Source: Camelus ferus (taxonomy: Eukaryota). Taken from it: a stretch of DNA of 64,000 nt. The translations under genes and the position numbers were made by a program. The notes below the pieces were generated by a model. The model worked only from the letters and a program-made list of their open reading frames with translations. It had not been told where the DNA came from and did no database searches. This document shows, piece after piece, positions 1,627 to 64,000 of this stretch (position 1 is the first letter of the stretch; the number at the start of each line of letters is the position of its first letter). The stretch is taken from assembly GCF_009834535.1 (NCBI RefSeq), contig NC_045696.1, forward strand, positions 3,970,001 to 4,034,000, in the 5' to 3' direction.

Positions 1627-1973
1627 AGGGCAGAGCTCCGCAGCGGGACTTTCTGAGATGATGGAGGTGTTCTGTGCTGCTCTGTTGTCACCCTCTCTCC
1701 ATATTCAGGCCTGAGCACCCTAAGAAGGGAAGTCCAGACCATCCTGCAAGAACCCACTTGGACAGTGCACACCCTTAGGCTCAGAACCATCCCATGTTCT
1801 TGGAGAGCTCTTCTGATTTTGGAAATGCCTCCGACCTTCCCCAGGGACTGGGCATTGGGCCACGTGTACTTCACCAGCCAGGGCTCAGGGCCCAGGGCCA
1901 CCAGCTCAGCTCCATCAGTGACAGACCCTGCGTTCCTAACAAGGCCCCAGGTGAAACCAGTGCTGCTGGTCCA

Positions 1974-2073
1974 NNNNNNNNNNNNNNNNNNNNNNNNNNN
2001 NNNNNNNNNNNNNNNNNNNNNNNNNNNNNNNNNNNNNNNNNNNNNNNNNNNNNNNNNNNNNNNNNNNNNNNNN
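1974..2073. other. Assembly gap (100 N)
   Basis: Run of 100 N. The 5' exons of MX2 are absent from the window. Confidence 1.
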
Positions 2074-3955: not shown

Positions 3956-4078
3956 AAATCCCTCCCACTGTTGGAAAATCAAATAAAGGAGAGCCAGCAG
4001 AGGGCGATAGAGGAGCTGCGCCAGTGTGGAGCCAACATCCCCAGCCACGACGCTGATAAAATGTTCTTTCTGATTGAG
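3956..4078 (+). CDS. MX2: MX2 exon (KSLPLLENQ...FFLIE)
   Basis: ttcag/AAA ... GAG/gtgag, 123 nt. Confidence 0.92.
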
Positions 4079-18149: not shown

Positions 18150-18240
18150 GGTTTCGTTTCTCACCAGAAGCCCTGGGACTATCCCAGGAGTTTCGTTTCT
18201 CAGCGGCTGGGGGCTGAGGGAGGGGGGAGCGAGGGGCGGT
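18150..18240 (+). promoter_or_regulatory. MX1: MX1 proximal promoter with two ISREs and a GC box
   Basis: GGTTTCGTTTCT (18150-18161) and AGTTTCGTTTCT (18189-18200), followed by GGGGCGG. This is the classic tandem-ISRE Mx promoter layout. Confidence 0.88.
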
Positions 18241-21090: not shown

Positions 21091-21857
21091 GTACGTGCTT
21101 TAGGGTTTTTATAGCATTTATTCAAGTCTTAAGACATATTTTTTCATTGACTTTTATCCATGGGTATTAGATGTGTAAAATTTAATATTTAGAGATTTTG
21201 GTTCCAGAATAAAATCTGAATGAATCTCACATATATGCATGTATGTATTTTGGATGCAGACAAGTGAGACCCAGTGGCCAATGAAGTGCTTATAAAGTCA
21301 AATGAATGACATTAAGACACAGTTCTTTGGGGGAAATGAAACCAAACTCTGAAGTCGAATATCAAAAGGAACACAGGAAATGACTTGGAGCTCATATTTT
21401 TTTAAAATATAGGTTCGAGTGTTAAATCATCATAATATTTAGAATCCGTCGTCTCCATTGGAAAGAGCTTTATAATACTTTTATTTTTACATGTAAATTT
21501 TAAAATGCATCAGAGATTTCATCCTTTGCCACAATTTACATTTATGGTGAAAACTCTTTTGACGTACAGTGTAGAATCGTGACGGGACCTGCAGAACTTC
21601 AAAACCTCTTTTTGGGGTCTGGAAGCATACATGCCCTTGAGGAGAGTCGAGCCAGGAGAGAGCATTTGCCCTCATCTGACATTTGGCTCCGTGGAATTGT
21701 CCTGTCGTTGGTTTATCAGTCAGCAGGGAATGAATGGGCCCCGCTGTGTCCCAGCGTGTCCCCTGGGGGGTTTGGCTCCGTGACTGAAGGTACCTGTCTT
21801 CTGAGTTGTGCTGATGCTCACCTACTTGATTTTAAGCTGATCCAGTAAAGGAAGAAG

Positions 21858-21962
21858 ATGGTTTATTCTGACTCGGAAAACAAAGAATTTGATTCAGCTT
21901 CTGCATCCAGTCATGCGTCACTAAATGGAAATGATGACATGGTGGAGAAAAATCAGGAAACA
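21858..21962 (+). CDS. MX1: MX1 coding exon 1 ([35 protein letters not shown])
   Basis: Acceptor ttaag/ at 21836, AAGATGG start, ACA/gtaagt; 105 nt. Confidence 0.88.
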
Positions 21963-27818: not shown

Positions 27819-27860
<42 letters not shown>

Positions 27861-42800: not shown

Positions 42801-45017
42801 AGAAATCGCGAAGCTCAGTAGTGACTCTAACGATGTGACCAGTGCGTCAAGAGAATCCACAAACAACATGTTGAATCACAGGAGCACGAGAGAGCCGTCC
42901 TGAGTGTAGAGCGTTGTCACGTCTGGAGAATGTGGCCCTGAGTGCGGAGGCCCACTGAGGCAGCCACGGGTAAACCTGCCATCCTTGTGGGGAGGGAGGT
43001 CAGCGGTGGAGCCTGTGCTTAGCCTGCATGCTTGTCCTGGGTCAAACCCCAGTAACTCCCTTAAAAAATGTTTTTAAGTGATGTTTCAAGAATGAAGAAA
43101 GAGAGCAAAGGGCAACGAGGCCCCCCTCCCCCGCCAATCAGCCCGGAGAGCTGAGCCGGCTGCCCTCGGAGCCTGGGTCCCTGGTCCTGCCTCGGGCACC
43201 ACCGCACTTCCTCCTCCCCGTGCAGGGCCTGGCAGTGGCAGGCCCAGGTGCCGGCTGCCTTCCCACTGTCCCTCCCCCGGGGCAAGGGGGGCTGGAGGGG
43301 AGAGCTCTCTGGTGTCTCTTCTTCCAGGGGCTGCATCCATTTTCAGGGCTCCTCTCTCACCGCCCAGACCCACCCCCCCCCAAGACCCCGCCTCCAGGTG
43401 CCCTCACACTGCAGATGAGGCTTTCAACACTGAAGTTGTGCCCCTAGCACCCAGCACCCCAGCACCCCGCACTCTGGGGAAGACTGGCTCTGCCTTTCCC
43501 AAGCCGGAGCTCTTGGGGCCACTTAACCTGCCTGGCCTGACGCTCCTCACCCACAAAATGGGAGTAAGAATGACCTTCTTCCGTAGCCCTCCTACACTGC
43601 GGGTGGGAGTGCAGTTTGCTGCAGTCCTCCTGGGAAACAGTATGGACTTTCCATGAAAAAAACAAAAACAGACTTACCCTGTGCTCCAGCCATCCCACTT
43701 CTGGGCGTATATCGAGAGGGAACTCTAACTGGAAAAAATGCACGCACCCCAATGTTCACAGCAGCACTATTTACAACAGCTAAGACATGGAAGCAACCTA
43801 AATGTCCATTGAAAGATAATGGATAAAGAAATTGTGGCATATGTACACAATGGAATACTACTCAGCCATAAAAAGAATAAAATAATTCCATTTTCAGAGT
43901 CGTGGATCTAAGATTCTAAAAAAAATGCGACAACTGACTTATTTAGAAAGCAAAACAGACCCAGAGACATAGAAGACAAAATTGTGGTTATGAGGTGGGG
44001 GACGGGGAGGCAGGGATAATTGGGGAGGTCAGCATTTCCAGGTGCACACTATTATATAGAAAATAGGTAAACGCCAAAGTCGTACTGTGTAGCACAAGGA
44101 ATTATATTCAACCCCTTGTAATAGCCTATAATAAAAAGAATATGAAAAGGAATATATGTATATATATATAACTGAATCACTATGTTGTGCACCAGAAATT
44201 AACACAACATTGTAAGCAAACCATATTTCTATAAAAAAAAAAAAAGGCCTCCTTCAGAAGTTTGTACTGAACATAGAAGAAAAGGTTTAGGATGCACCTG
44301 GCATCACACATCACCCTCAGTGGTACCCAGTGAAGTCTGTGGGTCCAGATTCCTTCTGGCTGAAGGGTTTCCTCCTGGCTCTCTGGCAGCCAGTTTCTCT
44401 GAACTCCAGAATATGAAATGTATGTGATTTCCCGATTTAAATCTGGCCCCCACTTATGCCTGTGAGCTCTCTGGTAGAAAAACACTCTTCCTTGTCAGAT
44501 GGAAAGATTGTAAAAGAGAAAGGAGGCTGGAAATGAGACCTGAGAACAGAGCCCGCACTGGTCCCTGGCCCTGGGGCTAAGGGGTCTGGTCACCCGTGCG
44601 GCTCGGGCTTCCTGGGGAATTCTGACCTCCACCAGGGGCGGGAGCCCACCTTGGAGAAGTCCCACATCGGGCATAAATTGGCACCTGCTGGGGGTGGCCC
44701 TTGCAGAGGACTTATTTTCTTCCGACCGCTTGATTCATTCCATAGGGAAATGTTGTCATGTTTCTCTTTCGCCGTAGTCCAAAGTTGAGGACATTAAATT
44801 AGATCTAGAAAATGAAGCTGAGAAGCTGATCCGATTACACTTCCAAATGGAGCAGATCATCTACTGCCAGGACAAGGTGTACCGGGGTGCGCTGCAGAAG
44901 GCCAGGGAGAAGGAGGCCGAAGAAGAAAAGAACAAAAAATCAAAGCATTCTATTTCGACCCTCACTGAGGACCCCTCCATAGCTGAGGTCGTTCAGCACC
45001 TGACCGCCTACCACGAG
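21858..45017 (+). CDS. MX1: MX1 (MxA) copy A, coding exons 1-12 of 13; frameshift in exon 11, last exon missing (gap)
   Basis: Exon sizes 105/193/138/155/139/199/79/123/142/159/79(expected 77)/240. G1 GDQSSGKS, dynamin signature LPRGSGIVTR, G3 DLPG, G4 TKPD and stalk [12 protein letters not shown] are present. Confidence 0.93.
22890..23090. mobile_element. MER5-like DNA transposon remnant
   Basis: cagagtgtggcccccagacctgcagcatcag...ccctccaggggattct...ctaaagtttgag; second copy at ~46865-47065. Confidence 0.6.
24115..24290. mobile_element. MER20-like DNA transposon remnant
   Basis: ggttctcagctggggg..ttttgcccc..tggcaacgtctggaggcatttt..ttgccacaact; copy at ~48100-48275. Confidence 0.6.
24395..26075 (-). 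mobile_element. Old LINE-1 (L1M) fragments, antisense, in MX1 intron
   Basis: T-rich L1 reverse-strand text (tttgcaaatatgttcttcc..ctgtggcttgtctttt..; ttgcattgtttcc..gaatctgctg..); copy at ~48380-50057. Confidence 0.7.
26138..26330 (+). CDS. MX1: MX1 coding exon 2 (P-loop GDQSSGKS)
   Basis: cag/GGG ... G/gtaag, 193 nt. Confidence 0.95.
27406..27543 (+). CDS. MX1: MX1 coding exon 3 ([13 protein letters not shown]...)
   Basis: ctag/GT ... G/gtaag, 138 nt. Confidence 0.93.
27780..27925 (+). mobile_element. L1 3' terminus with (GT)17 microsatellite
   Basis: aaaaggaatata...(gt)n...tgaatca..gctatacaccagaaattaacacattgtaaattgactat; the GT tract is 27824-27857. Confidence 0.75.
28635..29060. mobile_element. 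MLT1-like MaLR LTR remnant
   Basis: tatcagttagc..ttgctgtgtaa...tattagccaaagaaagtcacgtg..gagccca. Confidence 0.5.
30046..30200 (+). CDS. MX1: MX1 coding exon 4 ([15 protein letters not shown])
   Basis: ccag/CC ... CAG/gtgag, 155 nt. Confidence 0.95.
30832..30970 (+). CDS. MX1: MX1 coding exon 5 ([10 protein letters not shown])
   Basis: acag/ATC ... G/gtaag, 139 nt. Confidence 0.95.
32568..32766 (+). CDS. MX1: MX1 coding exon 6 ([11 protein letters not shown])
   Basis: gcag/GA ... AG/gtac, 199 nt. Confidence 0.95.
33800..34350 (+). mobile_element. L1M 3' end
   Basis: gttcgcagcagcgttcttcacaatagc...aaaaggaaggaaattctgacac...gatggtcgcacaacaatgtaa...ggttaaatggtg; a related older piece lies at ~31250-31660. 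Confidence 0.8.
34989..35067 (+). CDS. MX1: MX1 coding exon 7 ([18 protein letters not shown])
   Basis: gcag/G ... TGT/gtaag, 79 nt. Confidence 0.93.
36544..36666 (+). CDS. MX1: MX1 coding exon 8 ([16 protein letters not shown])
   Basis: tcag/AAA ... GAG/gtgag, 123 nt. Confidence 0.93.
37036..37177 (+). CDS. MX1: MX1 coding exon 9 ([17 protein letters not shown])
   Basis: acag/AAA ... G/gtgag, 142 nt. Confidence 0.93.
38275..39810 (+). mobile_element. L1M 3' region interrupted by an MLT1 LTR (~39080-39445)
   Basis: L1 text (aaactcttagaagaaaacatagg...gaaatgcaaaatc...tcaactgatgaatggataagcaaa) resumes at ~39445 after the MLT1-type insert (ctagggctgtcgta..caacagaagtttaattt..ggaggctggacgtccaagatcaag); copy at ~62235-63780. 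Confidence 0.75.
40495..40653 (+). CDS. MX1: MX1 coding exon 10 ([15 protein letters not shown])
   Basis: gtag/GC ... G/gtgag, 159 nt. Confidence 0.93.
40720..41490. mobile_element. MER21-like LTR remnant
   Basis: cagctggg...gaccagctgtaaatcagag...ccttgggcttgat..ttctagaacagctcacag..tttaccagtttattataaagga. Confidence 0.55.
42612..42690 (+). CDS. MX1: MX1 coding exon 11 ([19 protein letters not shown]), two apparent 1-nt insertions
   Basis: ccag/AT ... AAG/gtaaa. It is 79 nt versus 77 for the paralogous MX2 exon, with an in-frame TAA at 42656-42658 as assembled. Confidence 0.88.
43590..44245 (+). mobile_element. Lineage-specific L1 3' end with poly(A) tail
   Basis: tgttcacagcagcactatttacaacagc...ggaatactactcagccataaaaaga...actgtgtagcacaagg..aactgaatcactatg..accagaaattaacacaacattgtaa + A-tract. 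Confidence 0.85.
44778..45017 (+). CDS. MX1: MX1 coding exon 12 containing loop L4
   Basis: gtag/TCC ... GAG/gtgag, 240 nt; SKVEDIK...YCQDKVY...QHLTAYHE. Confidence 0.93.
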
Positions 45018-45299
45018 GTGAGTCGGCGAGTGTCTGAGAAAGGTGCTGTTCGCCTGTTCCCTTGTGTGTGAATGCCTCTCCCTTCATTCCTGTTGTCTGT
45101 GCAAGGGGACCACCAGCTCCACGGTTCAGTCCTTGGTGAACCTCCGAGGAGCAGCTCCATCGGATAGATGAGAAGCCTGTGACTCGTGTCTGGTTTTGCT
45201 GGCTGTGTGTCCTGGCCAAGTTGCTTAACCTCTCTGAGCCTCAGCTTTCTTTCTTCTCTGTAAAACGGTGTCTCCGCTCAGGGTTCTTGTGGATCGTCA

Positions 45300-45399
45300 N
45301 NNNNNNNNNNNNNNNNNNNNNNNNNNNNNNNNNNNNNNNNNNNNNNNNNNNNNNNNNNNNNNNNNNNNNNNNNNNNNNNNNNNNNNNNNNNNNNNNNNN
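45300..45399. other. Assembly gap (100 N)
   Basis: Run of 100 N where the last MX1 exon would be expected. Confidence 1.
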
Positions 45400-48300
45400 T
45401 AAATCATCATAATATTTAGAATCCGTCGTCTCCATTGGAAAGAGCTTTATAATACTTTTATTTTTACATGTAAATTTTAAAATGCATCAGAGATTTCATC
45501 CTTTGCCACAATTTACATTTATGGTGAAAACTCTTTTGACGTACAGTGTAGAATCGTGACGGGACCTGCAGAACTTCAAAACCTCTTTTTGGGGTCTGGA
45601 AGCATACATGCCCTTGAGGAGAGTCGAGCCAGGAGAGAGCATTTGCCCTCATCTGACATTTGGCTCCGTGGAATTGTCCTGTCGTTGGTTTATCAGTCAG
45701 CAGGGAATGAATGGGCCCCGCTGTGTCCCAGCGTGTCCCCTGGGGGTTTGGCTCCGTGACTGAAGGTACCTGTCTTCTGAGTTGTGCTGATGCTCACCTA
45801 CTTGATTTTAAGCTGATCCAGTAAAGGAAGAAGATGGTTTATTCTGACTCGGAAAACAAAGAATTTGATTCAGCTTCTGCATCCAGTCATGCGTCACTAA
45901 ATGGAAATGATGACATGGTGGAGAAAAATCAGGAAACAGTAAGTTGATGCCTGAAAACCACTAAGTGCGTGGACACGAGCTGTGTCCATCTGAGGGCTGC
46001 CGGTGCGGACAGCGACGCCCTGGCCGCCCGGGGCTGCCTGCTGCCACATCTCTCCTGGGCAGGATGTGGGTGCAAATGCTCTCAAGGAACTCATGCTGCT
46101 TGGGCCCTTCTTGCAGCCAGATGTAGCCAGTGTTTTGCTTTAGCTGATGCTGGTTGGGATTGGATTTTGTTCTGGGAGAGCAGGCAGGGTGCTGAATGGC
46201 TGGTGTAGGAATTGGTCCCGCGCAATGGGTCCAAGGAGCCCTGTGTTCTCACATGCATACGTCGTGGTTCAGTCTCCAGCGCAAAACTCTGAGGTGTCCC
46301 TGTGACCCCCCCTCACCGTGAAGCCACCTGATAGCTTTCTTCCCAAAATCACGTCACATGTTTGCGGGAAGCAAACTTGGCCTCCGGAATCAGTGCAACC
46401 CGAATCTGACCCGAGTGCTGCCACTTTCCTCTTTATGAGCTTGGGCGGTTATTTCTCCCTTTAGACGCCTGGCTTTTCATCTCTAAAGTGAGGAAGATTT
46501 TAGGATTTACTTTGTGTGGCTTTTGGAGGACTCGGGTACAGGCTGGGCGCTTAGAAAGAGCTCTGTATCTTGCTGTCATGTGTTGTAAAGCTGTAGCTCT
46601 TCAGCCCTTTCTAGGTGACTCCATGTTCTTAACCAGTGTTTAACACTATTTTAAACTATATTAGAAAGCACAGTGAAGGGCGTAGAAAACTGAGAAGGAC
46701 CCGCACTTTGCGCCCCCCGGTGTAACTGTCGTCTCCTGCCTGGCCGTGCCGGGCCCGGGGCAGTCGGAACCGCCCGGCTCACACTCACGCGTCTGGATGT
46801 AGCTGGGCCTCCTCCAGCAGCTAGAGCAGGCGTGTCCTGGGCGCAGCAGCCCCACTTCTAGGTGCAGAGCTTGGTCCTCAGAGTGTGGCCCCCAGACCTG
46901 CAGCATCAGAGTCCCCGGGGAAGCTCAGAGTGTAAATGAGCACCCTCACACATTCTGCCCCCGGACCTAGTGAACTAGACATTTCCGAGGCGGGGCCCGG
47001 CATCTATGCTTTACCAGACCCTCCAGGGGATTCTCCTTTGTGCTAAAGTTTGAGCAGCACTTTGCCATGTTCATACAGCGTCGAGTATGCACAAACCCGG
47101 AGTCCCCCCCGGGGGAGTGCGTGCACAGGTCGGCCCGCCCGTGCGGCAGGGTTCCCAGGAGCAGCGCGCGGACTCAGCTGGCGTCCAGGCGACCAGGGTG
47201 GCTGAGTCTAACCACCAACGCTGAACCCTAGAAGCACGTCCCGGAAGAGGTATACTCTGTGATCCCACTTATATGAGGTTCCCCAGCAGGCAACCGTGAG
47301 CCACGTACTGCTCAGCGAAGGATGGACTGGGGGTGAGAGCTGCGCTGAGGAGCAGGAAGGAGGTTCTCACAAGCCCTAGAGCAGAGCGCCCCCTGGGGGT
47401 GAAGGGGATTCAGGAGGAAGGGGCCTGGGGAGGGGAGGTGGAGAGTCCTCAGCGCTGGGAATGCCGGCTTTCTCAAGCCAGCTGGCTGGTACTGCATTTT
47501 TGCCAATTCTCGCTCATGTGTTATAAACTCTTGTGAATGGGCGGTACAGAAGTGAAAAGGAAAGGCCCCCACGAGGAGGACTGGGACTGAGGCCGCTGGC
47601 GAGTGTCAAGTTTCAGCCAGGTTTCTGCGGAGAGGCCATGGGCGGCTGGGCCCCAGTCCTTTCTTAAGTGTTGTTACTGAGAACAGTTGTAGAGGGCACT
47701 TGCTACAAATGGCAAAGAGGACGGTATTCACGTGTATTGCAATAGGGGAGAAAGACTGAGCTCACCGTGGATACCAGGAAAGTTGGGGGTGGGGGGCAGT
47801 GCGCAGGGTGGGGAGGGGAAGTGGGGGTGGGGGAAGGGGAGAGTGGGGGTGGGGGAGAGTGGGTAGGGGGAGGGACCTGATTAGCTCGCAGGGGTGACGG
47901 GGTGCTGGATGAGCTGGCTTAGCTCCATTCCTGGCTATGTGTGGGTGCAGCAGGCCAAGGTGGGGCCTAGTGGAGAGGAAGGCTCACAGGAGCCCCACTG
48001 AAGTTCACTCAAGGAGCCCCTGTCGGGGGTGCCCCCTTCTCTGCTGAGTGTCCTCAGCATTCCCTGCAGATGAGATGGGGCGCTCAGACATTCCGTAAGG
48101 AGGGGGTTCTCAGCTGGGGGCACTTTTGCCCCTTGGAGCACCTGGCAACGTCTGGAGGCATTTTCGTTGCCACAACTCGGAGTGAGCGGTGGACAGCGGC
48201 CAGGCGCGATGCCAGCCCTGCTGCAAGGCCCGGGACGGCCCCACCGCAGACACGTCTCTGGTCCGAATGTTAGTGCCTTCTCACCATGATCCGAAGGGCT

Positions 48301-51300
48301 GTTCTAGCAAAAGTGAATTAGATTACAGCAAACACACAAAAATTGAAGTTGGAAAGAAAGAGGCCAATGTCAAAATGATTGTTTCACATTTTCTTTTCAA
48401 CTGAGGGTGTTTGTTTGCTTGTTGCTGAGTTGTGAGTGTTGTCACGTGTGCAGAGCCTTTGTCAGATGCAGGCTTTGCAAATATGTTCTTCCTGACTGTG
48501 GCTTGTCTTTCATTTGCTTAACAGCGTCTTTTGAAGATCATACATTTTCAATTGTGGTAAAGGCCAATTTACCAGGTGGTTCTTTTATGGGTTGTACTTT
48601 GGGGCCATGTATAAGAAATCTTTGCCCAACCCAGAGTCAGAAAGATTTTTCTCCTGTGTTTTATTCTGGAAGTTCTGTAGGTTTAAGTTTTGCATTTCGG
48701 TCTATGATCTGTTTTGAGTTATTTTTCGTGTATGATGTAAAACACAGATTCACGGTCATTTTTTCTGCATATAGATAGTCAGTTACCCCAGTGCCATGAG
48801 TGGAAGGGATTACCTTTGTTCCGCAGCATTGCCCTTGCACTGTGGTCAAAACCCAGTTGTTCACGTACGTATCAGTTCATTCCTGGAACGTGTGCTCTGT
48901 TCCGTTGATCTCTTTCTCCATTTTTGCACCAGCCTCACAGTGTTTTGGTTGCTACAGCGTTGTAGTAATTATGGGAATCAGGTAGTTTGAGCCTCCAGCT
49001 GTGTTCTTCCTTTTCAGTGTCATGTGCCGTTGTAGGCGTCTGTAGACTTTTTATGTTTACCTTGCTTGTTAATATGATTAGACTTGGAAAGATCACTTTG
49101 CTTTTTGTTTTCCACATATATTTGTCTTTTACTTAATTTCTTCTATCCTCTTTTGAATTAATCCTGCCTTCTTTTGAATTAATCAAGTTTTTGTGAGTGT
49201 GTGTGTGTGATTCCATCTTACCTCCCTTATGGACCTACTGAGTGTAATGGTGTCAGGGAACACATTGTGCGTCTTTAACATATCAAATGTGCCTTCTGAT
49301 GCTGCTCTGCTTCTTCACGTGCAACGTGAGAACCTTACATTAGCGTGCCTCCATTTCTGTCCTCTCACCGTTCATGCTGCTTTTATCATGACAGTTAATT
49401 TTACTAATATATTAAACCCCACTGTATATTGTCATTACTTTTGTTCAAATAGTGAAATGTCTTTTGAAGATATTTAAGTAATAAAAAAGTACATTTGTCA
49501 CTGCTTGTGATGTAAGTTTTTTGGTGTGGATTCAGATTTTACTCAACGGCCCTTTCCCTCCAGTTGACCATCCGTGTTGCCGTTCCCTGTAGGGCAGGTC
49601 CGCTGATGACGTAGTCACTGACCCGTGTGCGTCCAAAGCAGTGCTTCGTCACTTTCCTCCCGGGGAGATCTTTTTGCTCGGTGGGGAATCCTAGGTTGAT
49701 GGTTTTCGTCAGCACTTTAAAAACGCTGTGCCACTGTCTTCCGACTTGCATTGTTTCCAGCGCGGAATCTGCTGTGAATCTCACTTGTGCGCCTCTGCGT
49801 GTAACCTGTCATGTTCTGGCTGCTTCACACACTTTCCCTTTATCTCTGGCTTTGAGCAATTTGTCGGTCATGTGCCCCGATGTCACTTACTTTACGTTTT
49901 TTATGCTTCTGGTTCGTTGAGCTTTTTGGATCTTCAGGTCAATAATCTTCACCAGGCTTGGGTAAATTCTAGCTGTTATTTCTTCAAACAGTTATTTCTG
50001 TTTCAGTCCCACTCTCTTTGGGGAACCCGAATCACCTGTATATTTGAGGCTGATTGAATTGTCCCTCTCTGGAACATGACCTGCAGATATGACAAAAGTC
50101 TCCACCTGTCCTCCCCCAGGGCCCGAGAACAACCTGTACAGCCAGTACGAGGAGAAGATTCGGCCGTGCATCGACCCGTCGACTCCCTGCGGGCCCTGGG
50201 CGTGGAGCAGGACCTGGCCCTGCCCGCCATCGCCGTCATCGGGGACCAGAGCTCGGGCAAGAGCTCCGTGCTGGAGGCGCTGTCGGGGGCGCCCTTCCCC
50301 GAGGCAGCGGTAAGCCCTTGGCCTCGTGTTCCTCCGCCGAGGCTGCCGCGACAGCAACCTCAGAGGGCGTGGAAGCGCGAGCGGCATAGGCTCAGCGCTC
50401 TGCCTGTTCTGACCCGCGCCGCGCTGCGGCGGGCGCTCCTTCGCTCTTCCGCCCTTCGGCCTGTCCTCTCCGCGGCTCACAGAGAGCCGGCCTCCTTGTG
50501 GCTTCACGTGGCCTCTTCTCTGCGTGCAGCGTGTCTGGCTTCTCGTCCTCTTTTATAAGGATGCCAGCATGTTGCTAGGGCCCCACTTTAGGACCTCGTT
50601 TAATGTTAATTGACTCTTTAAGGAGAGACGCCCATCTCCAAGTACAGTCGCGCTGGGCGTGCGGGCTTCTACTGGGACGTTGTGGGGGATGGAATTCAGG
50701 CAGTAACCCCCCTCATCGCAGAGTGTGGACTGTCTGCAACCTGCAGGGTGGAGGGCTGTTGAATGTATGTGGGACCCCAGCCTCGAATGCTCTGCATGTT
50801 GCTGCCTTTCCCTTGAGCCCCTTCCCAGGAGGTGACCCTCCGTCCGGGGGTAAAGGTTAGTGCTCTGGTTAGGGTGCTGCTTGAGCTACGAGGCCAAGGA
50901 TCAGGGAGGCCTCAGGGATGAAGGCCGACCTGGCTGGGTCTTGAAACACAGGTCAGATGTGAAGGCGGGTGGGACCTGGAGTTGTTAGCAAAGGGACGTT
51001 GTGAGGTGGCCTGGTGAGGGGAGTGGGCCTTCCCGATAGGAGCGGGCTGTGTGCGCCTGGGTGGTGGACGATGTCTGCAGACGTTTGGGTTTCCCACTGC
51101 AGTTTGCCTCCTGAGCTGATGGAGACCGCGGGGTGGGGGAGCAGGAGGTCTAGCGTAGCGGCTTCATGCCTCAGTGAGCCAAACGCCACCTGAAATGCCC
51201 AGTCAAGATGCGCAATCTGGAGCCCCTCCAGAAAGAGCGCGGCGGCTGTCAGAGGGTGCGAGCAGCAGGTGTGCAGTTCAGCGGTCCTCCCCAGATGACT

Positions 51301-51796
51301 GTACGGAACTCGGAGAGCCACTGATGTCAGGCCGCCGTACAGGACCGTGGAAGAATATAGATCTGAACGGGAGCGACCTCCTAGGTATTGTTACGAGATT
51401 TCCTCTGGTGCTGAACTGAAAAAACTTGTGAACGAAGATGGATGGAGAGGCAAAGTCAGTTTCCGGGACTACGAGGCCGAGATTTCAGATCCTTTGCAAG
51501 TGGAAAAGGAAGTCAATCAAGGTAAGTGTCCCGTGTTCATCACTTATTTGAACATCTGGTCAACTGGGTGACCTGGGTGGGATCGCCCATCGGTGTTCCC
51601 ACTCTCTCCTTTCTGGGCTTGTCCTGGTCCTTGGGGCACCCTTTCCTTTCCTTCCTCCTTTATATGAGGCCCCCAGCTCCCTTGTATGTTCTCTTCTTTT
51701 ACTTTCATTGTGACCAGTGTTTTGACAGCGACCTGTATTCAATACTTTGTAATGGCTTCTACTGGAAAATAATAGGAAAAGGAATATACATATATA

Positions 51797-51838
<42 letters not shown>

Positions 51839-54800
51839 AATGAATCAGTACGCTATACACCAGAAATTAACACATTGTAAATTGACTATAATTCAATTTT
51901 TAATATTGGGGGAAAAATACCAGTGCCTTGGGCAGAATCTGATCTCAGTGATTTATTGCTTAGTATTTATGTAAGCATCTGAACATAATGTCAGGTTTTG
52001 AAGCTTGTGTTTCTAATACGGAGGACTTCTCCTGTATTCAAGGGCTCCCCGACTGCACAGATATGATGGAAGAGGCATCAGGGTGCGGGGTGGGGGAATC
52101 CCCTTTCCTGTTAACTTGGTAAAAAGGCATTCCAAAATGCTGACTGCATCCTTGCTGAATCCCGCTCAGCACTGGAGGTTCTTTTCCCCCAGGAGCGTGA
52201 TGTGAGCATTTGCACAGTCCTAGCTGCAGCAGATTTATGGCAGCTCCCAGTAAATGCAAACCACGGGGATTAGTTTACCAGTCTGAAACACCTGAAAGGA
52301 GAGCAGGTCCAGCAGATAGGGACAAAACAATGATGCACTTAGCTGCTGCTACGTGTAAGTGAGATGAGCACACAACTTTTCCTTACTGACTTTAATTTCT
52401 TCCTAGCATGTCACATAATTCAATTCCAGTCATTTGAGAAATGACATTAACTGATATCCAGCAGTAGGAAAGTGTGGGTCTGACTCATGTAAAGATGGAA
52501 GCACTGATGATCTTTTATTGGCTGTTCTGCAAAATTTAAATAAAGATATAATCAAATGTTACTGTGTGTTTTGGGGATTACATTGCCTGCCTGGTGCAGA
52601 AAAGTCGAAATCACAGTGCGTATCAGTTAGCCCTTGCTGTGTAAGAAAACAAGCTCAAAGCCTTATGGCTTAGAAGGGTACATTTCTTGTGATTCAGAGG
52701 GTCAGCCGGGCAGTTCTTTCCCTCTGGGCTATCTTGGCTGCGGCCAGCACTCTAGGACCGCCTCAGGCACTTATCCCAAGGCTGGGCTGGAATAACCAGG
52801 ACTTGTATCCCTGTGGTCTGTTACCCTTCAGGAGGCTGGGCGGGGCTTTGTTACGTGGTGGTGGAGCAGTTCCAAGCAGCGAGCCCAATGTGTAAGCACC
52901 TGTGAATGTCTACTAGAATATGTTCTGTAATGTCCTATTAGCCAAAGAAAGTCACGTGATTGAGCCCAATTTGAAGGAGCAAACTCCCTGCATGGGACAA
53001 GTAGCAGTCACCCTGTGAAGCAGCAAGCTTCCCCGATGGGAGGGAATATGACACTATTTGTGCAAGCGAGTTACTAACACAGGGGTTTAAAGAATGTTCC
53101 AGTTTTACTTCTCGCTCTTGTAGAAGTCTGAAGGTGGGCAGACCACAGGTGGTGTGGGGGTTCCAGGGTCAGGAACCCAGACTCCCATCTGTTCTCTCTG
53201 TTCTGTGTAGCCTGCAGTCCCAAGGCTGCCTCGTGATTCAGTCAGCAAGTCTCCATTCGGGTCAGCTGGACATTGGCAATGGCACATCGTATCTTAAGCA
53301 CATTTTCTGGAGGTTGCACGTAGTGTCTTCACATCTGTCCCACAAGCCCCCCTGAATCTCATGACCACGTCTCCGGGAAATAGATTTGAGGGAAAAACTC
53401 AGCAGATTGGCCGCACATACCACTGTTGTTATTGTTTCCATTCTGCGTCCTTGACTGCTAGGAATCATACCAAAAATACGTTCTCAGTGTAGACAGTGGT
53501 AATGTAGTGTTAGCTAACGATCTGACGAACTGGATTCATATCTTGAAATGTCATTACTCAGGAGGACGTGGCAAAATGAAATCCCTCAAGGGACTCCCAG
53601 CAGCTAACGTTCATCTTGCCCGAGCCAAGCACATTCCCCTCTGTAATATTCGACGTCATGTTTCAGGAACCACCATGTATTTTTATTTGCTTTAATTTTA
53701 CTTGGTTGTTAAGTTCCTACTGCATCCATGGGGGCAGTTAGGTGTGACAGCAGAACTTACCGGCTCTGCTCAGGTTAGGACTGGTGCCGCTGGGTGTCAT
53801 CTTTAGAGATGTTTTCACTGGATCCCTCTGCAGACAATTCTAGCCAATGGCAGTGACAAAACCGAGTTATCTTTTGAAGCCCCGTTTTGCTCTAGAAAAG
53901 GGAATCTGCTCCAAACAGGCCTTATCCGTGAATCACAGCGGGTGGAGGTTGCTTTCAGAGGATTCGCTGTAATGAGAGATTCCATCCTAAGCTCTATTCA
54001 GATTTTCTTGTTTGCTCTTCTCCAGCCCAGATTGCCATCGCTGGGGAAGGAGTGGGAATCAGCCATGAGCTGATTACTCTGGAGGTCAGCTCGCCTAACG
54101 TCCCGGATCTAACCCTGATAGATCTTCCCGGCATCACCAGGGTGGCCGTGGGCAATCAGCCACACGACATTGAATACCAGGTGAGACTTCAAGCTGCATC
54201 CTGGCCTGGGCACTCACGCATCAGTCAGATCAGGACTGAGTTTGAAGAGCGGGTGACAGGGGTTGTCATAGGGAAACCTACGAAGTTTGTGATGGTCGAA
54301 ATCTACTCCACCAGGATAGGAGGAAGCTTCTGTGGAAAGAGGGAAATAGGTAAAGTTGGAAGTGCATTTTGTGGTTTGTTTTTGCTGACAGTGACATGTT
54401 GTCACATACCTAAACTGGCACTTTTCAGGAAGGGGGTTCATGTGGGAAGGGACAGCATGGGCACAACTATAATGCTGCTTCTGACTCAGGGAACCTCATT
54501 CTGTGGAGTAAAGATTTCGGGAAATGCAAGCAGCTCTTCTGGCATCTTGTTTTTCATCGTGATCATCAGCTTTGAGGTCTGAGGAGATAATTAATGAGCT
54601 AAAACCTCACAGTTTTCCCTGACCTCAGAGCTCTCTTTCAGCCACAGAGAGCTCAGTTTCTCCGGCTTGGAAAGTGCCACCAGGCTTGTGTCGCGGACTC
54701 ATTTCTCTGTAGTTGCTTCTTTGGGGGAAATACCTCTGGGACAGGGAGGGCCTGAAGCTAGTACGAGGGAAGGACCTGTCTTAACTCTCATACCCTCTCA

Positions 54801-57800
54801 TTTTCCAACAGATCAAGTCTCTCATCAGGAAGTACATCCAGAGGCAGGAGACGATCAACCTGGTGGTGGTCCCCTGTAACGTGGACATCGCCACCACCGA
54901 GGCCCTGCGCATGGCTCAGGAGGTGGACCCCGATGGGGACAGGACCATAGGTAAGAAGAGGGAAGAGTCTAAACATGGTAGGCGGCTCGACAGCAGAAAA
55001 GCATCCGTTGAATGCAGTGGTTGTTTCTTGGCCCCCAGGCAGGTGGGGGACTGCACCCAGCAGGTGAGGAGCACTTGAGAACCCACTGAGGCCAGATGAA
55101 ACGGGCCACATCTGACTCCTGTTGGCCGTGTGTTGGCTCGTGGTCCTTGTCTAGCTGCTTATACTAGGCCTGGTGGGCTCGGGGGGCAGAGCGAAATCAG
55201 GAAGCAGTTATATCCGTTGACAAGGCATTTGAAGCACTACAGCCCGAGTGTCCCGGACAGCTGAAAGGACACAGGAAGTGTGACGTGTCCATGCGCTGCT
55301 AGAGCCGTCAGCCTTAAAAAGGAAGGACGTTCTGACACGTGCGCCAGTGTGCATGGACCTTGAAGACATTAGGCTCAACGAAATGAGCCAGTGCGAGCGC
55401 ACAGATCCGTGGGACCCACTTTCATGGCGGATGGAGAGGAGTCAGGTTCAAAGAGACACAGTCAAGTGCGGGGATCGGGCGGGGGAGGAGGCAGCTGCTG
55501 GTGGAGACAGAGTCTCAGCTGTGGGAGCTGGAAGGTTTGGAGGCGGACAGGAGAGCGCGCTGCACCGCAGTGCGAGAAAGGCTTAGCGCCCTGAGCTGCT
55601 CACCTAAAAGCGGTTAGAATTGTCAATTTTATGTTTAAAACCTTGCATTTGGCTGTGAACAGTGGAGGACCTGAGTCCAGGGGCTGAAACAAATGGAGAT
55701 TTATCCTCACACAGAAGAAGTAACCTGGGCAGAGGCCTCTCCCCTCTCTGCCCGTGGCGGTGAGCCTTAAGGACCGGTCTCTCCTCCACCCTCAGCCGTG
55801 GTCCTGACTCCTCCCTCGTCCTGCCGCGCACCAGGCCTGGGGCGAGAGTCTCTCGGCCAGGGCAGCAGCTGCCAGTGGACCCGGGAAACCTGAGGGTTCG
55901 ATCTGTCCTGGCCTCAGTAGCATTCAGCCTGGGCCGTCACCCAGGCCCAAAACCTGGAGGGGTCCACGCATGCTGCAAGGCTGTGCCACTGCCGTCTCAT
56001 GGTACCCAACGTCTGAGCACGGGGCTCTGCGTTTTCCTTCTGCAGGGGGCCCCACAAATGATGTAGCTGGTCCTGGCCCGACCTGTGTTTCTCAGAATGT
56101 GCGCCAGGCCCCATCTGCATCAGAAATCACTGGAGAAATTTTAGAAACCCAAGTCCCTGGCTCCCACTGAACGTCTAAGTCTGATTCCTGGGGAGGGCCT
56201 GAGAATCTGCATTACAGGGCTCACCTGAAGGCGGTTCAGCTGCGCAGGGAAGTGAGAGCAGTATCGTAGAGAGTGGCCTCTTCCACTGGTCGGAAGGGAC
56301 TCAGAAAGGCCAGGAGATGCTGCCGTGTCTCTGGGTGATGTGTGCATGGGGAGAACCCACAGCCAGGTGTCCTCACAGCAGCAGGGACTCGCACCTTTGT
56401 CCTGCTGGCCCCATCGTCTGCCCTCCAGCAAGGGTGGGAGGAATCCGGGGACCAGGGGACCGTCCTCCCCAGGGCCGGGAGCTCTGCTCACTTCTCACTG
56501 TGGGAAGCTTTGGGCGCTCTCTAATCGGAGGTCTCTGGCCTGCAGGAATCTTGACAAAGCCTGATCTTGTGGACAAGGGCACTGAAGACAAGGTGGTGGA
56601 CGTGGTACGAAACCTCATCTTCCACCTGAAGAAGGGCTACATGATTGTTAAGTGCCGGGGCCAGCAGGACATCCAGGCCCGGCTGAGCCTGGCCAAGGCC
56701 CTGCAGAGGGAGCAGGCCTTCTTTGAGGACCACACACATTTCAGGTACGCACGGCGGTGTCTTCCTGAGGTTAAACCGAAATCACAGACCTCTGTCCTTA
56801 GGGGGAAAGATGGACGCCGTCCAAAAGCAGATACTGAGCGTAGTCGTGTGTGTTTGTTCCTGGACAATGACCTCGGAATTTGCTTCAAATTCTCAAGGAA
56901 GAATTGACAACGTGTTGCAAAAGGCAAATTTAAAATTCAAAATAAGAAAGAGACTTTCTGCCGTAATTTAAATAGTATAGTTCTCAAACCAGACTATAAA
57001 TGTAGGTGCACAGAATAGAAAAAGGTGGAAAACCCAGAAATTGACTCAGAATTGTATATTTGATCTGGGATAAATGTGGCATTTCAAAGCCCTGGGCTAC
57101 ATCAGTTTATCCATCAGTGGCTTTGAGATCATTGTGTAATATTTGGGAAAAATTTATTGTGCCCCTACTTAGTATGGGATACCAAAATAAATATCAATTG
57201 AAGTTTAAAATTAAATACAAGAAAGACACCTTAAGCATCCCAGAGGAAAACAGAGGTGGAGAGTTTATAATCCCATATCTTGCGAACTCTATTGCCGAAA
57301 GCAAAATTCTTTAAAAAGGAAAAAAGACTGTTAAATTGGTTAGATTTGAAATAATGAGTAGATGTTGAGTTGATGGGAAAGGAGGGGTGTGGGTCTTCAC
57401 CTCTGCTACTGGGAGCATGTGCTGTGGTCACATGCGAGCCAGTCTGAGCAGGTGTATCCCCAAGGCTGAGTTCTACTTCTGGGAATTCTACCCAGGAAAA
57501 TACAGGGATGTGTGCAGTCCTGTAGGCTAAGGTTGTTCGGCACAGATTTCTTTTTAATCATGAAAATTTGGAATCTAAACGTTGGAAATCGTGGGGTTTG
57601 TATACACGAACCAGAGTAAGAGACTGAAGACTTTGCAAGCATTCGAGAGCTGTGTCAATCAGATGCCAACACAAAGGTGCATATAGATGCTGAGAACAAA
57701 GGGACACAGTCACTGAGAGCCCTTGTGTGCAGACATGCACTCGTGGGTGGAGACCCACGTGCTTTGTCACCGCATCACACTGAACTCCCCCAGAAGCCTG

Positions 57801-60800
57801 CAGAGACACGTGCTTCAGAAGAGACACCTGTGCACTCGTGTTCGCAGCAGCGTTCTTCACAATAGCTACCGCGTAGAAACCACCTGCGTGTCCGCTGACA
57901 GATGCCTGGAGAAACAAAATGTGGTCCATCCAGACAGTGGACTCGGCCTGAAAAAGGAAGGAAATTCTGACACAGGCTGTGACACAGATGAACCTGGGGG
58001 ACAGTGTGCTCAGTGAAATAAGCCAGTCACCAAAACACAAGCCCTGGATGATTCCATCACACGAGGTCCCTGGAGGAGTCAGCGTCACAGAGACAGAGAG
58101 TGGAAGGATGGTTCCCCGGGTCTGGGGGCTGGAGGTGGGGAGCTGCTGCTGATGGGTCAGAGTTTCAGTTGGGGAAGAAGATTTGGTTCTGGAGGTGGGT
58201 GGCGGCGATGGTCGCACAACAATGTAATAGCACTTAATGCCCCGAGTGTGCACTGACATGTGGTTAAATGCTGGGTTTTATGTTATGTATGTTTTTACAC
58301 AGTTTACAGAATGGACAGGGGTGGAAACTGAAAGGGAGGTGTCCGTGTACTACCACAAATCTGCCTGAAAATTCACGCCTCCTGGCTTGAATCCTTCATC
58401 CTCAAAAGCCCTTAAAAATGTAGGAAGCCCTGTAACCGCTCAGCCGGTGAACACAGATTTGAAAGCGTGAGAGGAGGGCTTGGCTTCCTCCCTCCCAGCG
58501 CCCGAGGTCTCAGTTCTCGTCCTGGGGAAGGTGCGCCCCCTCGTTCAGAGTGCACCCCACACCTGTGTAAACACACGTCAGTACATTTTCATGAAGCCCG
58601 GGGCCGAGATGCGTCGTGTACGCAGAAGGGCGTGCACGTTATGAACACACAGCTAGAGGACACTGTATCTTTATAAAGACCGGTTCTCTAGGCCGATGTC
58701 CTGAGTCAGAGTCAACGTCTCAGCTGGGCGGGATCATTCTATACCATTTTCGAAATACCCAGCATCACTAAAATTCAGCCCTGGCTCCGTGCGCCCCAGT
58801 TCTGAGCACTTCCTGGGCACCGGCAGCAGGACAGCGCACCCCGTGGGGAGGACCTGGAGTTGCCGTGGCTTCTCCCGGCAGCAGGGAGCAGGCTTGCGTC
58901 GTCTGGCCGGACCCAGGTGGACGTGTTCGCTGTCTTCTCTTGCAGGGATCTTCTGGAGGAAGGGAGGGCCACGGTCCCCCGCCTGGCGGAGAAACTGACC
59001 GCAGAGCTCATCACACACATCTGTGTAAGCGCACGCAGAGCGGCCCGTTCTCTGAATAGAGTCCCGCAGGCGCGAAGCTGGGCCGCGCTGGTCACTCACT
59101 GCGACCTCCTGGGGGCCTTAGTGAGGCGCAGGGCACCCCGATGCGGCGTGGGCTCCCCAGGTGGTGCGGACGTTGCCCGTCAGAGGCCCACACGCTGAGT
59201 GGGATGCTGATGGTGCGGACGCACTTGGCCTGGGTGAAAACTAGACTCTCCGAGCACGGCACCACCCGCTCCTTTCTCACTGCCAACCGCTGTCATGGCG
59301 TCGGGGTCGCTGTGACGGTCGTGTGGGCCACTTCTGAGATTTCTCTGTGGTCCTTTTCAAATCTGCCTGGACAGAGTCTCTTGCTTTTTCACATTTACAA
59401 ACCTTTTATACGATGTCTTTGCTCGTATTTCTGTCTTTGTTTTCACGGGATGATTCCAACGTCGGCAGCCGGGTTCTCCCAGCCGTCCCCAAGGGACTTG
59501 GCTGGAGTTGGGACTGTGAGCCTCTCTTTCCTGGAACCTGGTCTGAGGGTGTGTGTGGGGGCCTAGGTTCAAAAGGGCTTCTGCAGGGAACACCGTGTTT
59601 GTTTCTGCCAGGCCCCGGGGAGGCCCTTTAGTGTTTCTGAATCACGTTAGATTTTCAGCCTGAGTTTGGGGACACTTTAGGGAGTGTGACGTTGAAAGTG
59701 TAGATGTGTTTGAGTGCTGGCTTGTGGTTACAGATTCCCAGGGGAGACTTTCTCTCCCCTCCTCCCAGCCCCGGCGTTCAGGCCAGGAGTGGGGCCGGAC
59801 GGCAGGGGTGTTCCTTGCTGACCGTTACAGTGAGAGCGGAGCTGGCTGGGGTCCCGGCTGCATGCAGGACTCCCCACCTTCAGCAGCCCACTGGGCATTT
59901 AGCCCTTCCCCCGGCACCCTGGCACCTGAGTCACTGGGCACCCACTGTCACCTGGCCTTGGAGTTCTGTCTCTGACCTGCCCCCGCCAGCTCACTGACAC
60001 ATTTAAAGGGGTGCTTGTGACCCTCAGGCCAGCAGTTTGAGGTGTTTGCGGTTGGCGGGCAAGCCAGCAGGTGCAGTCACCATGTGATGAGAGACAGAAG
60101 TCCCTGATAACTTTTAATCGGTTAACAACAACCTACAAATGTTGAATTTCAAATTATTCCGATGGCCACTTTTTCAGGACCCACTAGACACACGGGTTTT
60201 GCTAGTCCCCCTGAGGACAGTTTATGCCACAGGCTCCCAGAGGGACGTGGTCCTTGTGTTGCTGTCACAGGACCCGTAGGCACGCAGCGTGGCCCTGAGG
60301 CTGCTTCCACAGGAGCGGGCAGGGGGGAGGCCTGATGGGCAGCAGTTCCTGCTCCCACGCCCCCCTCCTTTGGGAACATCTGCCTTCTAGAGGGGCCAGG
60401 AATGGAGCGCCCTGGGCCACTGTCCGGCACCTGCAGGAGAACCCCGGGCCTCTGCTCATCCCGCTCACATCTGTGTCTTCCCGTTGTTTTCTGTTCTCAG
60501 AAATCCCTGCCCCTGTTAGAAAATCAGATAAAGGAGAGTCACCAGAAAATATCAGAGGAGTTACAGAAGTGTGGCTCCGACATCCCGGAAGACAAAAGTG
60601 GAAAAATGTTCCTTCTGATAGAGGTGAGTGTTGCCAGGGGACCAAGCTGCAGACTCGTGCGTCACTGTGCGGAAAGGGGTCGTGTTCCTCGGGCACGTCT
60701 GTCTTCACTTCCCCAGAGCTAATCCAGGTCACTCTGCCCCTTTGGCACCGAAAAGGGGCTGGGCTTAGGGGACCATCCCACTGCTGCCATTGGCTCCTCA

Positions 60801-63800
60801 TCAGGGGGACCCTGAAGGCAGGGAGGGCGGGAGGGGGTCATCTGCTGCCAAAGCCTCTTCTCTCCCCTCTGCCCACGAACCCCTCAGGCAGGAAAGAGGG
60901 ACTCGCCCTCCGCTTCATGCATGCGACCCCCAGACCACCTTGCTCGTATCTGGAGTATCTGCCCTTATCCATGTGTTTTTCTTCTTGACAGAAAATTGAT
61001 GCGTTTAATAAGGAGATCACAGTTTTAATTCAAGGGGAGGAATGCGTGGGGGAGCACAAGTCTCGGCTGTTTACCAGAATCCGAAGTGAGTTCAGCAAAT
61101 GGAGTGCTGTGATCGAAAAACATTTCCAAAAAGGTGAGCCCAGGCAACAAGGGAGACCTGGCAAGGGGGTCGAGCCCAGGGCGGGGTGGGGGAGATGCCG
61201 TTGGTGAAGGCGGCCACGGTAAGGGGTTAGTAGTGGGAAAGTCTCGTTTGCCGTTTCATATCCCTGAGTCTGGCCCGGAAGCCTCTAGTACCGATTTCAA
61301 AGGACACCCAGAGAGAAAACGCAGCCTCCCTGGCCCGTCTCCTTGGAGACGCTCAGAAGAGCAGCCCTCCGTCCGCAGAGAGCCCGTGGGCCTGGCGCGT
61401 GTGTGAGGCTCTTTGCGTTGCCAGTCGGGCTGCCCCTGAAACGGCCCCGATTCCCTCTCCCTTAACCTACCGAGGCCTTGAAGCCTGAGGCGTTTGGTGA
61501 TAGATTTCACAGCCGCAGTGATGAAAGGCACAGAGAACAGCACGTGAGGTACCAGCCTCGCATCATCAAAGCCTCCAGAGTCTGAAAAAGGTAGACACTG
61601 TGATCTGAAGTTTACTTTTAATATTTCAAGACGCCTGAAGCAAATCATAGATCAGCCACTGAGGACAATATCAAGTAACTTTGCTTTTATTCAAACAACT
61701 TGGGGTGGCAGGTGTGTTCCTTATTGATTTCGGCTGACCCCAGGTTCAGATTGGCAGGCCTCCTGGGCTCTGAGTCAGGAACATGGGAAGATAAATCATG
61801 CAAGTTTCTACATAAAGCAGAGGTGACACCTTTGTTCCTTGCCAGAGGGCAGGGAGGGTAAGGAACAGTGCCCTTGAGGGAGAAAAGTCCGGAAAGCTCA
61901 TTTGCGGGCAGTCACTTGCCCCATTTCCGTGGTCCCTGCGCTGTTTGCAGGAGCTAAATCCACCCGCGGAGAGAGGGCGGCTCGCTGCTGCGTGCTGTGC
62001 CCTCTCGTCAGCCGGGGGACCCCGTTCAAGGACGACGACAGCCCTTGACCTCCAGCGGTCCCCCGTGCACTGTCCAGCCAGGTTTTTAATGGTGTAAGTG
62101 TGTAGGGCAGGCGGCCTGTGAGCTAGTGTCTCAGGTTTTTAGATGCTAAACCCCTCCCAGCAACGATCAGTTACGTATCACTGGGCACCCAAATGCAAGA
62201 GAATTAACTGAAACCCCTAACTCACCCTCGAGGCAAAAGATAAACTCAAAATGGGTCAAAAACCAACAAGTATGGCTGAGACTGTAAAACTCTTAGAAGA
62301 AAACATAGGATTAGACCTTCATGAGCAGGATTCGGCAGTAGTTCTCTTTTCTTCAGACGGGACCCCTAAAACAGGAGCAGCAAAAAAAAAAAAAAAAAAA
62401 AAAGATCATTTGGATTCATCTGAATAGGAACCATTTGTGCATCAGAGAGCGCTAGCACGGAAGTGGAAAGACACCCACAGGTTGGGAGGGAACATTTACA
62501 AATTTTACATCTGACAAGTGTCATGTATTCAGAGTATATAAAAAGCTCTACAGCTCAAGCACAAAAAACAAACAATCCAGTTTAAGGATGATCAAAGGAT
62601 TGGTGTAGACATCCTTCCAAACAAGAAGATGTGCCTGTGGCTAATAAGACCATGACAAGGTGCTCAAGCTCATTATCCAGCAGAGAAATGCAAAATCAAC
62701 CCACAGCGGGACGCCACCTCACACTTGCTCGGATGCCTGTCAGCAAAACGTTGACAGGGAGTGTTGACAAGAGTCTAGAGACGGCAGAACCCCCGCACCG
62801 CTGGAGGAAGAGTAATGGTGCAGCTGCTCTGGGAAGCTTTCCAGCAGTTCCTCCGGACGCTCAGCATGTGCTGCCACATGACCAGCGGTTCCATTCGTAG
62901 GTACATCCTCCAGAGAATGGACGTGTGTGTTCACATAAATGCGTTCTGAATGTCCTTGTCAGCACTGTCCATAATGGCCAAGAAATGGAAACCACCCATA
63001 TGTACATCAACTGATGAATGGATAAGCAAATTGTGGTCTGCTGGTACGTATCCATTTGCTAGGGCTGTCGTACCGAGGGTCTTAAGCAACAGAAGTTTAA
63101 TTTCTCATAATGCTGGAGGCTGGACGTCCAAGATCAAGTGTCAACCAGTTCGGGTTCTTCTGAGGCCTCCTGTCTTGGCTTGCCGGTGGCGGCCCTCTCC
63201 CACTGTCCTCACGTGGTCACCCTTCTGGGTGTGTCTGTGTCCTGATCTCCTGCTGTTAGGACCAGTGTTACCGGTGAGGGCTCCCCTCCTGGTCTCATTT
63301 CACCTTCACTGCCTCTTTAAAGGCCCTGTGTCCCAGTACCATCCCATTCTGAGGCACCAGGAGATAGGTCTTCAACAAACGAGTTCTGGGGAGACAGAGT
63401 TCAGCTCTCAGTGGAACATTATTCACCCCTAGAAAGGCACGAGGGACTGGCCCGCGCTACACCTCGGATGAACCTGGAGTCTGTCAGGCCGAGTGAAAGC
63501 GGTCAGGCACAAAAAGCTGCATGCTGCATGGTTGCACTTATATGGACGTCCAGATGAGGCGAATCCATAGACCTGGAAAGCTGATTAGTGGTTTCCAGGG
63601 GCTGGGGAGAGAGGGAAACGGGGAGGGACTGCTGGTCGGTACAGGGTTCCATCGCGGGATGGAGTCTTGGGGGATTAGACGGTCTCGATGGTTGCACCAC
63701 TTTGTGACTATGCTGAAAACCGTACACCTTAATAGTGTGAATTTTATGGTTTGTGTATTGACCTCAGTTTTTTAAAAATGCCTGTGAGAAAGTATCTCCT

Positions 63801-64000
63801 GAGCAAAAGAGGGTAACTAGGTTACCATCCTTGATTTAGCAAAGAAAAGAAACCAGAGCCCTGCTGAATTTGCACCCCCTGTGGGGTTTCTCCATACTCT
63901 CGTCTGCTGAGGGGGAAAAGAACTCCAGATGTATAAAGGAAAACCTAAATGTTTTACAGAGTAAACAGTGGCGCCGCCTCGGGTCAGTGCTCTAGCTCTA
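45400..64000 (+). repeat. Direct duplicate of 21423-~40034 (>=18.6 kb, continues off window)
   Basis: Colinear near-identity at an offset of ~23.96-23.98 kb, including introns and repeats. Confidence 0.97.
45834..61133 (+). CDS. MX1: MX1 copy B (paralog or alternate haplotype), coding exons 1-9; frameshifts in exons 2-3 as assembled
   Basis: Exons 45834-45938, 50120-50309 (190, -3), 51385-51521 (137, -1), 54026-54180, 54812-54950, 56546-56744, 58946-59024, 60501-60623 and 60992-61133. Confidence 0.85.

Follow-up and report, generated by a model that had tools for sequence, protein, structure and literature searches.

Does the MX locus of Camelus ferus contain a second, genuine MX1 gene, and if so, what was duplicated? 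The window analyzed here, a stretch of 64,000 nucleotides from contig NC_045696.1 of assembly GCF_009834535.1 (positions 3,970,001 to 4,034,000), was originally predicted to restart within the MX1 5′ intron after a gap and to repeat 21423 to about 40034, including nine coding exons. Self-BLAST of the window revealed exactly this repeat, with one long match between 45400-64000 and 21423-40034 (98.5% identity over 18,664 columns, E = 0), and the nine coding exons were located with their AG/GT flanks in both copies. We refer to MX1 at 21423-45299 as copy A and to MX1 from 45400 onward as copy B. As had been noted, copy B begins exactly at a gap, its repeat starting at the first base after the 100 N of 45300-45399. 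The separate junction proposed at 1814-1973 was also recovered, since this segment matches 13853-14012 with 97.5% identity up to the 100-N gap at 1974-2073. Both joins between units are N gaps in the window, with no junction in resolved sequence. The copies differ by 179 substitutions and 46 internal indel events, and the 23-bp indel reported earlier corresponds to a tandem duplication in copy A (34287-34334). The features are listed in Table 1.

Table 1. Positions, in window coordinates, of the MX features, gaps, and blocks of divergence between the two MX1 copies
Feature	Position	Strand	Remark
Intergenic copy of 13853-14012, 160 bp	1814..1973	+	Left flank differs
Scaffold gap	1974..2073	.	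100 N
MX2 3′ part, last six coding exons only	3956..9730	+	Matches 333-aa C. ferus "Mx2-like" P0230
Two ISRE-like sites	18150, 18189 (18150..18200)	+	Upstream of copy A; once in window, none assembled for copy B
MX1 copy A, coding exons 1-12	21423..45299	+	Gap cuts off the last coding exon
Copy A exon 1	21858-21962	+	Coding
Copy A exon 10	40495-40653	+	Coding
Copy A exon 11	42612-42690	+	Frameshifted as assembled
Copy A exon 12	44778-45017	+	Coding
Copy A loop L4	44919..44969	+	A-type, without aromatic residue in Camelus
Error-like block	26100..27450	+	Of 24 indel events, 20 involve 1 bp; copy B lacks the base in 18 of the 20
Homogenized block	27451..31399	+	0 substitutions in 3,949 bp
Divergent block 1	31400..34999	+	98 substitutions in 3,600 bp (2.7%)
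Divergent block 2	36200..37300	+	27 substitutions in 1,101 bp (2.5%), of which 25 are transitions; site of E368K and A388V
Scaffold gap	45300..45399	.	100 N
MX1 copy B (partial), 5′ intron into intron 9 (coding exons 1-9)	45400..64000	+	Runs off window
Copy B coding exon 1	45834..45938	+	Identical to copy A
Copy B coding exon 2 (P-loop)	50120..50309	+	190 nt versus 193; three 1-bp deletions, error-like block
Copy B coding exon 3	51385..51521	+	137 nt versus 138; C105F, frameshift
Copy B coding exons 4-7	54026-54180, 54812-54950, 56546-56744, 58946-59024	+	No difference from copy A
Copy B coding exon 8	60501..60623	+	K368, common to dromedary Mx1-like P0016 and C. ferus P0011
Copy B coding exon 9	60992..61133	+	V388, common to P0016; A in P0011

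Both copies are recognizable as MX1. Exons 1 to 9 of copy A are identical to the C. ferus Mx1 model P0010 at 424 of 424 positions, and the C-terminal read-through tail of that model is the one found in the window; the same exons differ from Bactrian Mx1 at one position, from dromedary Mx1 at two, and from the alpaca models at seven and eight. The best matches of exon 6, among those listed, were camelid Mx1 proteins (97 to 100%). Copy B exons 4 to 9 matched camel Mx1 at 79 to 100% per tblastn hit, although these hits overran the exon ends, versus 40 to 66% for the MX2 exons of the window, indicating that copy B is nearer to MX1 than to MX2. In Pfam searches with single exons, PF00350 was above cut-off for copy A exon 2 and PF01031 did not reach cut-off on either of two short exons, including copy B exon 9; full camel models carry both domains, Dynamin_N (PF00350) and Dynamin_M (PF01031).

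Neither copy has an intact reading frame as assembled. The two amino acid changes of the original prediction were found and correspond to E368K and A388V, but it had overlooked the frameshifts and C105F: copy B carries three 1-bp deletions in exon 2 and one in exon 3, leading to a stop at codon 110, and in copy A a frameshift in exon 11 brings a stop at codon 493. The four deletions, the C105F substitution, and the early stop are what would be expected if the duplication were real and copy B had become a pseudogene in C. ferus through genuine frameshifts, and the matches listed did not include a C. ferus model for copy B on this chromosome record. We regard this as improbable, since the deletions fall in a single 1.35-kb block in which the indels are mostly intronic, 1 bp long (20 of 24), and lost in copy B (18 of 20), since copy A too carries a frameshift, one present in none of the dromedary, Bactrian, or alpaca models, and since both genes of the dromedary MX1 pair are intact, the counterpart of copy B being a 661-aa model. 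The differences in this block, which comprise 12 transitions and 24 transversions, would be consensus errors, and the 1-bp frameshifts of both copies most likely stem from errors in unpolished sequence.

The substitutions between the copies are clustered, as the original prediction had stated. In the first divergent block, 61 of the substitutions are transitions and 25 are at CpG, with a peak of 30 substitutions in 500 bp, and exon 6 is identical between the copies despite its position inside this block. The other stretches contain few differences (1 substitution in 35000-36199, 9 in 21423-26099, and 8 in 37301-40034), and a substitution-free run as long as the longest observed (4,006 bp) was reached in none of 10,000 random placements. 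The heterozygosity of camels is reported as about 0.1% (PMC3514880), so that the diverged blocks, which are rich in transitions and CpG sites, are at 2.5 to 2.7% approximately 25 times too deep for ordinary alleles. The divergence is not near heterozygosity, as it would be for a haplotig, and copy B has a counterpart elsewhere, namely, in the dromedary.

Dromedary Mx1 (P0013) and Mx1-like (P0016) are both encoded on one chromosome record of 122,687,160 bp, and E368K and A388V are the only differences between them in coding exons 1 to 9. The same two substitutions are the only differences between copy A and copy B in exons 4 to 9, with copy B carrying K368 and V388. Judged by these residues, copy B would be the wild-camel counterpart of the dromedary Mx1-like gene. 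An older C. ferus model (P0011), which is patchy, combines K368 and a B-type L4 loop with A388.

MX2 is doubled as well. The accessions of the dromedary record run Mx2 (XP_064332145), Mx1 (146-149), Mx2 (152-154), and Mx1-like (160-165), and those of a 124,690,746-bp alpaca record run Mx2-like (XP_072825538), Mx1 (550-565), Mx2 (573-580), and Mx1 (586-593). The members of a pair differ by 3 aa for dromedary MX2, 5 aa for alpaca MX2, and 2 aa for alpaca MX1. The C. ferus chromosome record encodes a full Mx2 (P0224) in addition to the partial Mx2-like protein P0230. A second dromedary record contains several partial MX models, one of which (P0121) joins MX1 3′ exons with an A-type L4 to downstream MX2 exons 8 to 13, indicating that an MX1 lies upstream of an MX2 in that record. 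We take accession order to reflect gene order. Because MX2 is doubled and the accessions alternate, a duplicated MX2-MX1 cassette is likely, rather than the MX2-MX1-MX1 array originally proposed. The literal order of the window, with one MX2 followed by two MX1, the end of copy A and the copy B promoter being concealed in the gap at 45300, would accommodate two copies in tandem on the plus strand and has a parallel in elephants, which have two MxA and one MxB (PMC4687636). It is nonetheless highly improbable, given the doubling of MX2 in the records of C. ferus, dromedary, and alpaca and the recurrence of the intergenic segment 13853-14012 at 1814-1973, upstream of the MX2 part; the layout of the window is probably an assembly product.

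Comparison with assemblies of related species had been suggested as a check. Two MX1 and two MX2 models were found on one chromosome record in both dromedary and alpaca. For Camelus bactrianus, a 149,680,253-bp record showed one Mx1 (A-type, P0012) and one Mx2 among the matches listed (the best 120 of 1,610 and 120 of 233), indicating that in this species the second cassette may be a polymorphism, may lack annotation, or may be missing. Eight further protein clusters included no named camelid among the members listed (15 of 22 and 15 of 49 for two large clusters, with three clusters unnamed). A search of sequencing runs with 27900-32760 identified the stretch in 20 of 23 rows, from 7 studies, all of them assembled contigs. 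Eighteen rows held 0.93 to 0.97 of its words (one being flagged as a possible source), and two, from one study, held 0.88 to 0.89, versus 0.876 expected if the copy A variants were missing, which favors neither side.

Together, these observations make a real camelid duplication of an MX2-MX1 cassette (MX2-MX1-MX2-MX1), with conversion between its members and misassembly in the window, the probable explanation of the locus. The second MX1 copy is most likely a real extra gene that arose through duplication of the whole MX2-MX1 pair. In support of the proposal that the copies are distinct paralogs and not haplotigs, E368K and A388V recur in a second dromedary MX1 on the same chromosome as the first, and the alpaca has two MX1 models. 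The duplication is not limited to one species but spans Camelus and probably Camelidae.

The main competing explanation is a single MX1 locus with two old alleles, held by balancing selection across camel species, both of which are falsely duplicated in the assemblies. Heterozygous haplotypes can be falsely duplicated in long-read assemblies, and the window resembles such cases in its repeat starting at a gap, its overlapping contig ends (the sequence at each end of the middle contig recurs in the neighboring contig), and its 1-bp errors. Two alleles would produce the same window layout, and for this reason the explanation retains some weight, although we consider it unlikely. It would also be compatible with the long blocks containing no substitutions, with the single Mx1 and Mx2 models among the matches listed for the Bactrian record, with the advantage of mixing MxA specialists (PMC12047444), and with the mosaic divergence and shared lineage residues described below, which fit recombining alleles too. 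The two alpaca MX1 models, both with an A-type L4 and 2 aa apart, are a pair that a haplotype duplicate would also give. What distinguishes the camel locus from such false haplotype duplications is that the two coding differences and the doubling of MX2 are seen again in the records of other species. Under the allelic explanation, MX2 and MX1 must both have been falsely duplicated in four separate chromosome records from three species, twice with alternating accessions, and the allele pair must have persisted over the 5 to 8 million years since the dromedary-Bactrian split (PMC4884201).

If the cassette is duplicated, the window is probably a broken and misordered assembly of that duplication. 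The near-identity of the cassettes would have broken the assembly, and the middle contig (2074-45299), which contains the MX2 3′ part and MX1 copy A, would have been inserted with contigs of the other cassette on either side. The left contig ends at the equivalent of 14012 and the right contig starts at the equivalent of 21423, which is most simply read as one cassette in two pieces, with about 7.4 kb, including the promoter of copy B, missing between them. Segment 1814-1973 would probably be part of the intergenic region of the other cassette. Alignment of 1500-1813 with 11500-13852, which flank the candidate unit boundary at 1814/13853, was only patchy and chance-like.

The region upstream of copy A contains two ISRE-like sites at 18150 and 18189, and judged by this motif, 18150..18200 is likely to be the MX1 proximal promoter. 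Two further ISRE-like sites (14605 and 14625) lie in a GC-rich segment (14480-14640) that may be an upstream MX1 promoter, 3.5 kb ahead of the proximal one. Inspection by eye of the MX2-MX1 intergenic region showed LTR-like sequence at 11300-12800. The left end of the window (1-1625) is occupied by a decayed endogenous retrovirus remnant with a probable 3′ LTR, including an integrase piece at 43-198 (Pfam rve, below cut-off) and an envelope piece at 658-1335 (TLV_coat, E = 6e-30). No counterpart of the remnant lies upstream of 13853, so that it may serve as a marker for one of the two intergenic regions between MX2 and MX1.

The alternation of identical blocks with blocks diverging by 2.5 to 2.7% is the pattern that gene conversion would be expected to leave, and we attribute this patchwork to exchange between the two cassettes. 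Residues T163 and I268 are present in both window copies, whereas S163 and V268 are present in both dromedary and both alpaca copies, which we likewise attribute to exchange between cassettes within a lineage; recombining alleles would fit this combination too. Gene conversion among Mx paralogs has been documented (PMC4687636). According to the cassette model, the cassettes would keep swapping sequence by gene conversion or unequal crossover, homogenizing most of the GTPase-coding half in each species and leaving the old diverged blocks in place. In Camelus, exons 8 and 9 and L4 would be the parts that resist homogenization, so that a pair of very different L4 loops would be retained.

Past exon 9, P0013 and P0016 differ by V520L, by one late residue, and by an L4 loop that is largely replaced. 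The two camel MX1 genes appear to differ mainly in this virus-recognition loop. The L4 exon of copy B lies beyond the window, and its B-type loop is deduced from K368 and V388. In human MxA, an aromatic residue at position 561 of L4 sets orthomyxovirus restriction, and coexpressed MxA specialist variants have been tested for combined breadth (PMC12047444; 10.64898/2026.08.07.743570). The B-type loop has a tryptophan at about position 561, counted from the lysine run in a variable loop where the register is uncertain, and the A-type loop of Camelus has no aromatic residue. The B loop is the more ancestral-like of the two (outgroup score of 226 versus 147 for the A loop).

In a tree of the exon 12 segment (15 rows, the rhino being left out because it lacks the anchor motif), the B-type models, P0011 and dromedary Mx1-like, grouped at 97/93, and the A-type models, including those of alpaca, grouped at 86/84. 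This topology hints that the A and B types of L4 may have split before the divergence of camel and alpaca, dated to 11 to 25 million years (PMC4884201). An AU test on these 15 rows did not reject a single Camelus clade (P = 0.16). A compensated frameshift of the B type is a weak lead for the origin of the A-type loop: read in a shifted frame, the L4 of copy A matches the B loop at 4 of 9 residues, a score reached by 783 of 20,000 shuffles in this post hoc comparison. An independent test against 14 outgroup loops failed (266 of 3,000), and the best frame was a different one.

Copy A has L520, as in the B-type models, in place of the V of Bactrian and dromedary Mx1, which may mark a short conversion tract in exon 12. 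Among 182 proteins containing the motif, a redundant set, "VV" before QH (44970-45000) occurred in 7, all of them camelid A-type, and "IF" in 157, including B-type proteins.

The joint reading that we propose, tentatively and at somewhat less than even confidence, is that camels have four Mx genes from a cassette duplication predating the camel-alpaca split, that conversion keeps the enzyme cores interchangeable, and that selection holds an ancestral-like L4 with W~561 beside a camelid-specific L4, devoid of aromatic residue in Camelus and possibly derived by compensated frameshift. According to the cassette model itself, both genes would be interferon induced through the same promoter, and the result would be nearly identical MxA GTPases with different virus-recognition loops. 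Such a two-loop pair would hold, in a fixed state, the heterozygote advantage that has been demonstrated with human MxA variants.

Mammalian Mx copy number has been described as nearly static, and a 2025 paper, which states that MxA has not rampantly expanded, asks why this is so, though mixed specialist variants broaden restriction (PMC12047444). If our reading is true, the camel genome has two MxA specificities hard-wired into it, in contrast to the published view of mammalian MxA as a gene that does not expand. A natural, near-identical MxA pair with different L4 loops would make the question testable as complementation versus dominant-negative interference, in animals that are both livestock and a reservoir of zoonotic viruses. 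MX1 is also used as a single interferon marker in camelids (10.1101/2023.01.15.524100), and a collapsed or misordered MX locus would skew camelid variant calls and expression values.

Several elements of this picture are already known, namely, extra MxA genes in elephants and rodents, extra camelid copies in the NCBI annotation, and the naming of MX1 and MX2 as copy-number variable. The "Mx1-like" and "Mx2-like" models generated automatically by NCBI for dromedary, alpaca, and C. ferus correspond to these extra copies and exist as database entries. A preprint on South American camelids (10.1101/2025.08.28.672513) lists MX1 and MX2 among copy-number-variable genes, and its available text gives neither structure, direction, nor animal count for them. 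In the literature searched, which included few subscription journals, no camelid MX duplication was described beyond this preprint, nor was a doubled MX2-MX1 cassette, a conversion mosaic, or two L4 types; PMC7468183 contains no mention of MX1 or MX2.

The closest systems are found in elephants and rodents. As in camelids, the elephant MxA duplication provides two close MxA-type genes in one eutherian lineage (PMC4687636), with at least two Mx1-like models on one chromosome among the matches listed. Elephants keep a single MxB (PMC4687636), whereas MX2 is doubled as well in camelids, and the two elephant Mx1-like models share their L4 loop, unlike the two dromedary MX1 models. Rodent Mx1 and Mx2 are likewise two MxA-type paralogs, which recurrent gene conversion has homogenized in tracts that extend into introns (PMC4687636). 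The second rodent MxA arose by conversion or loss of MxB (PMC4687636), so that the Mx count stays at two, whereas camelids appear to have four Mx genes.
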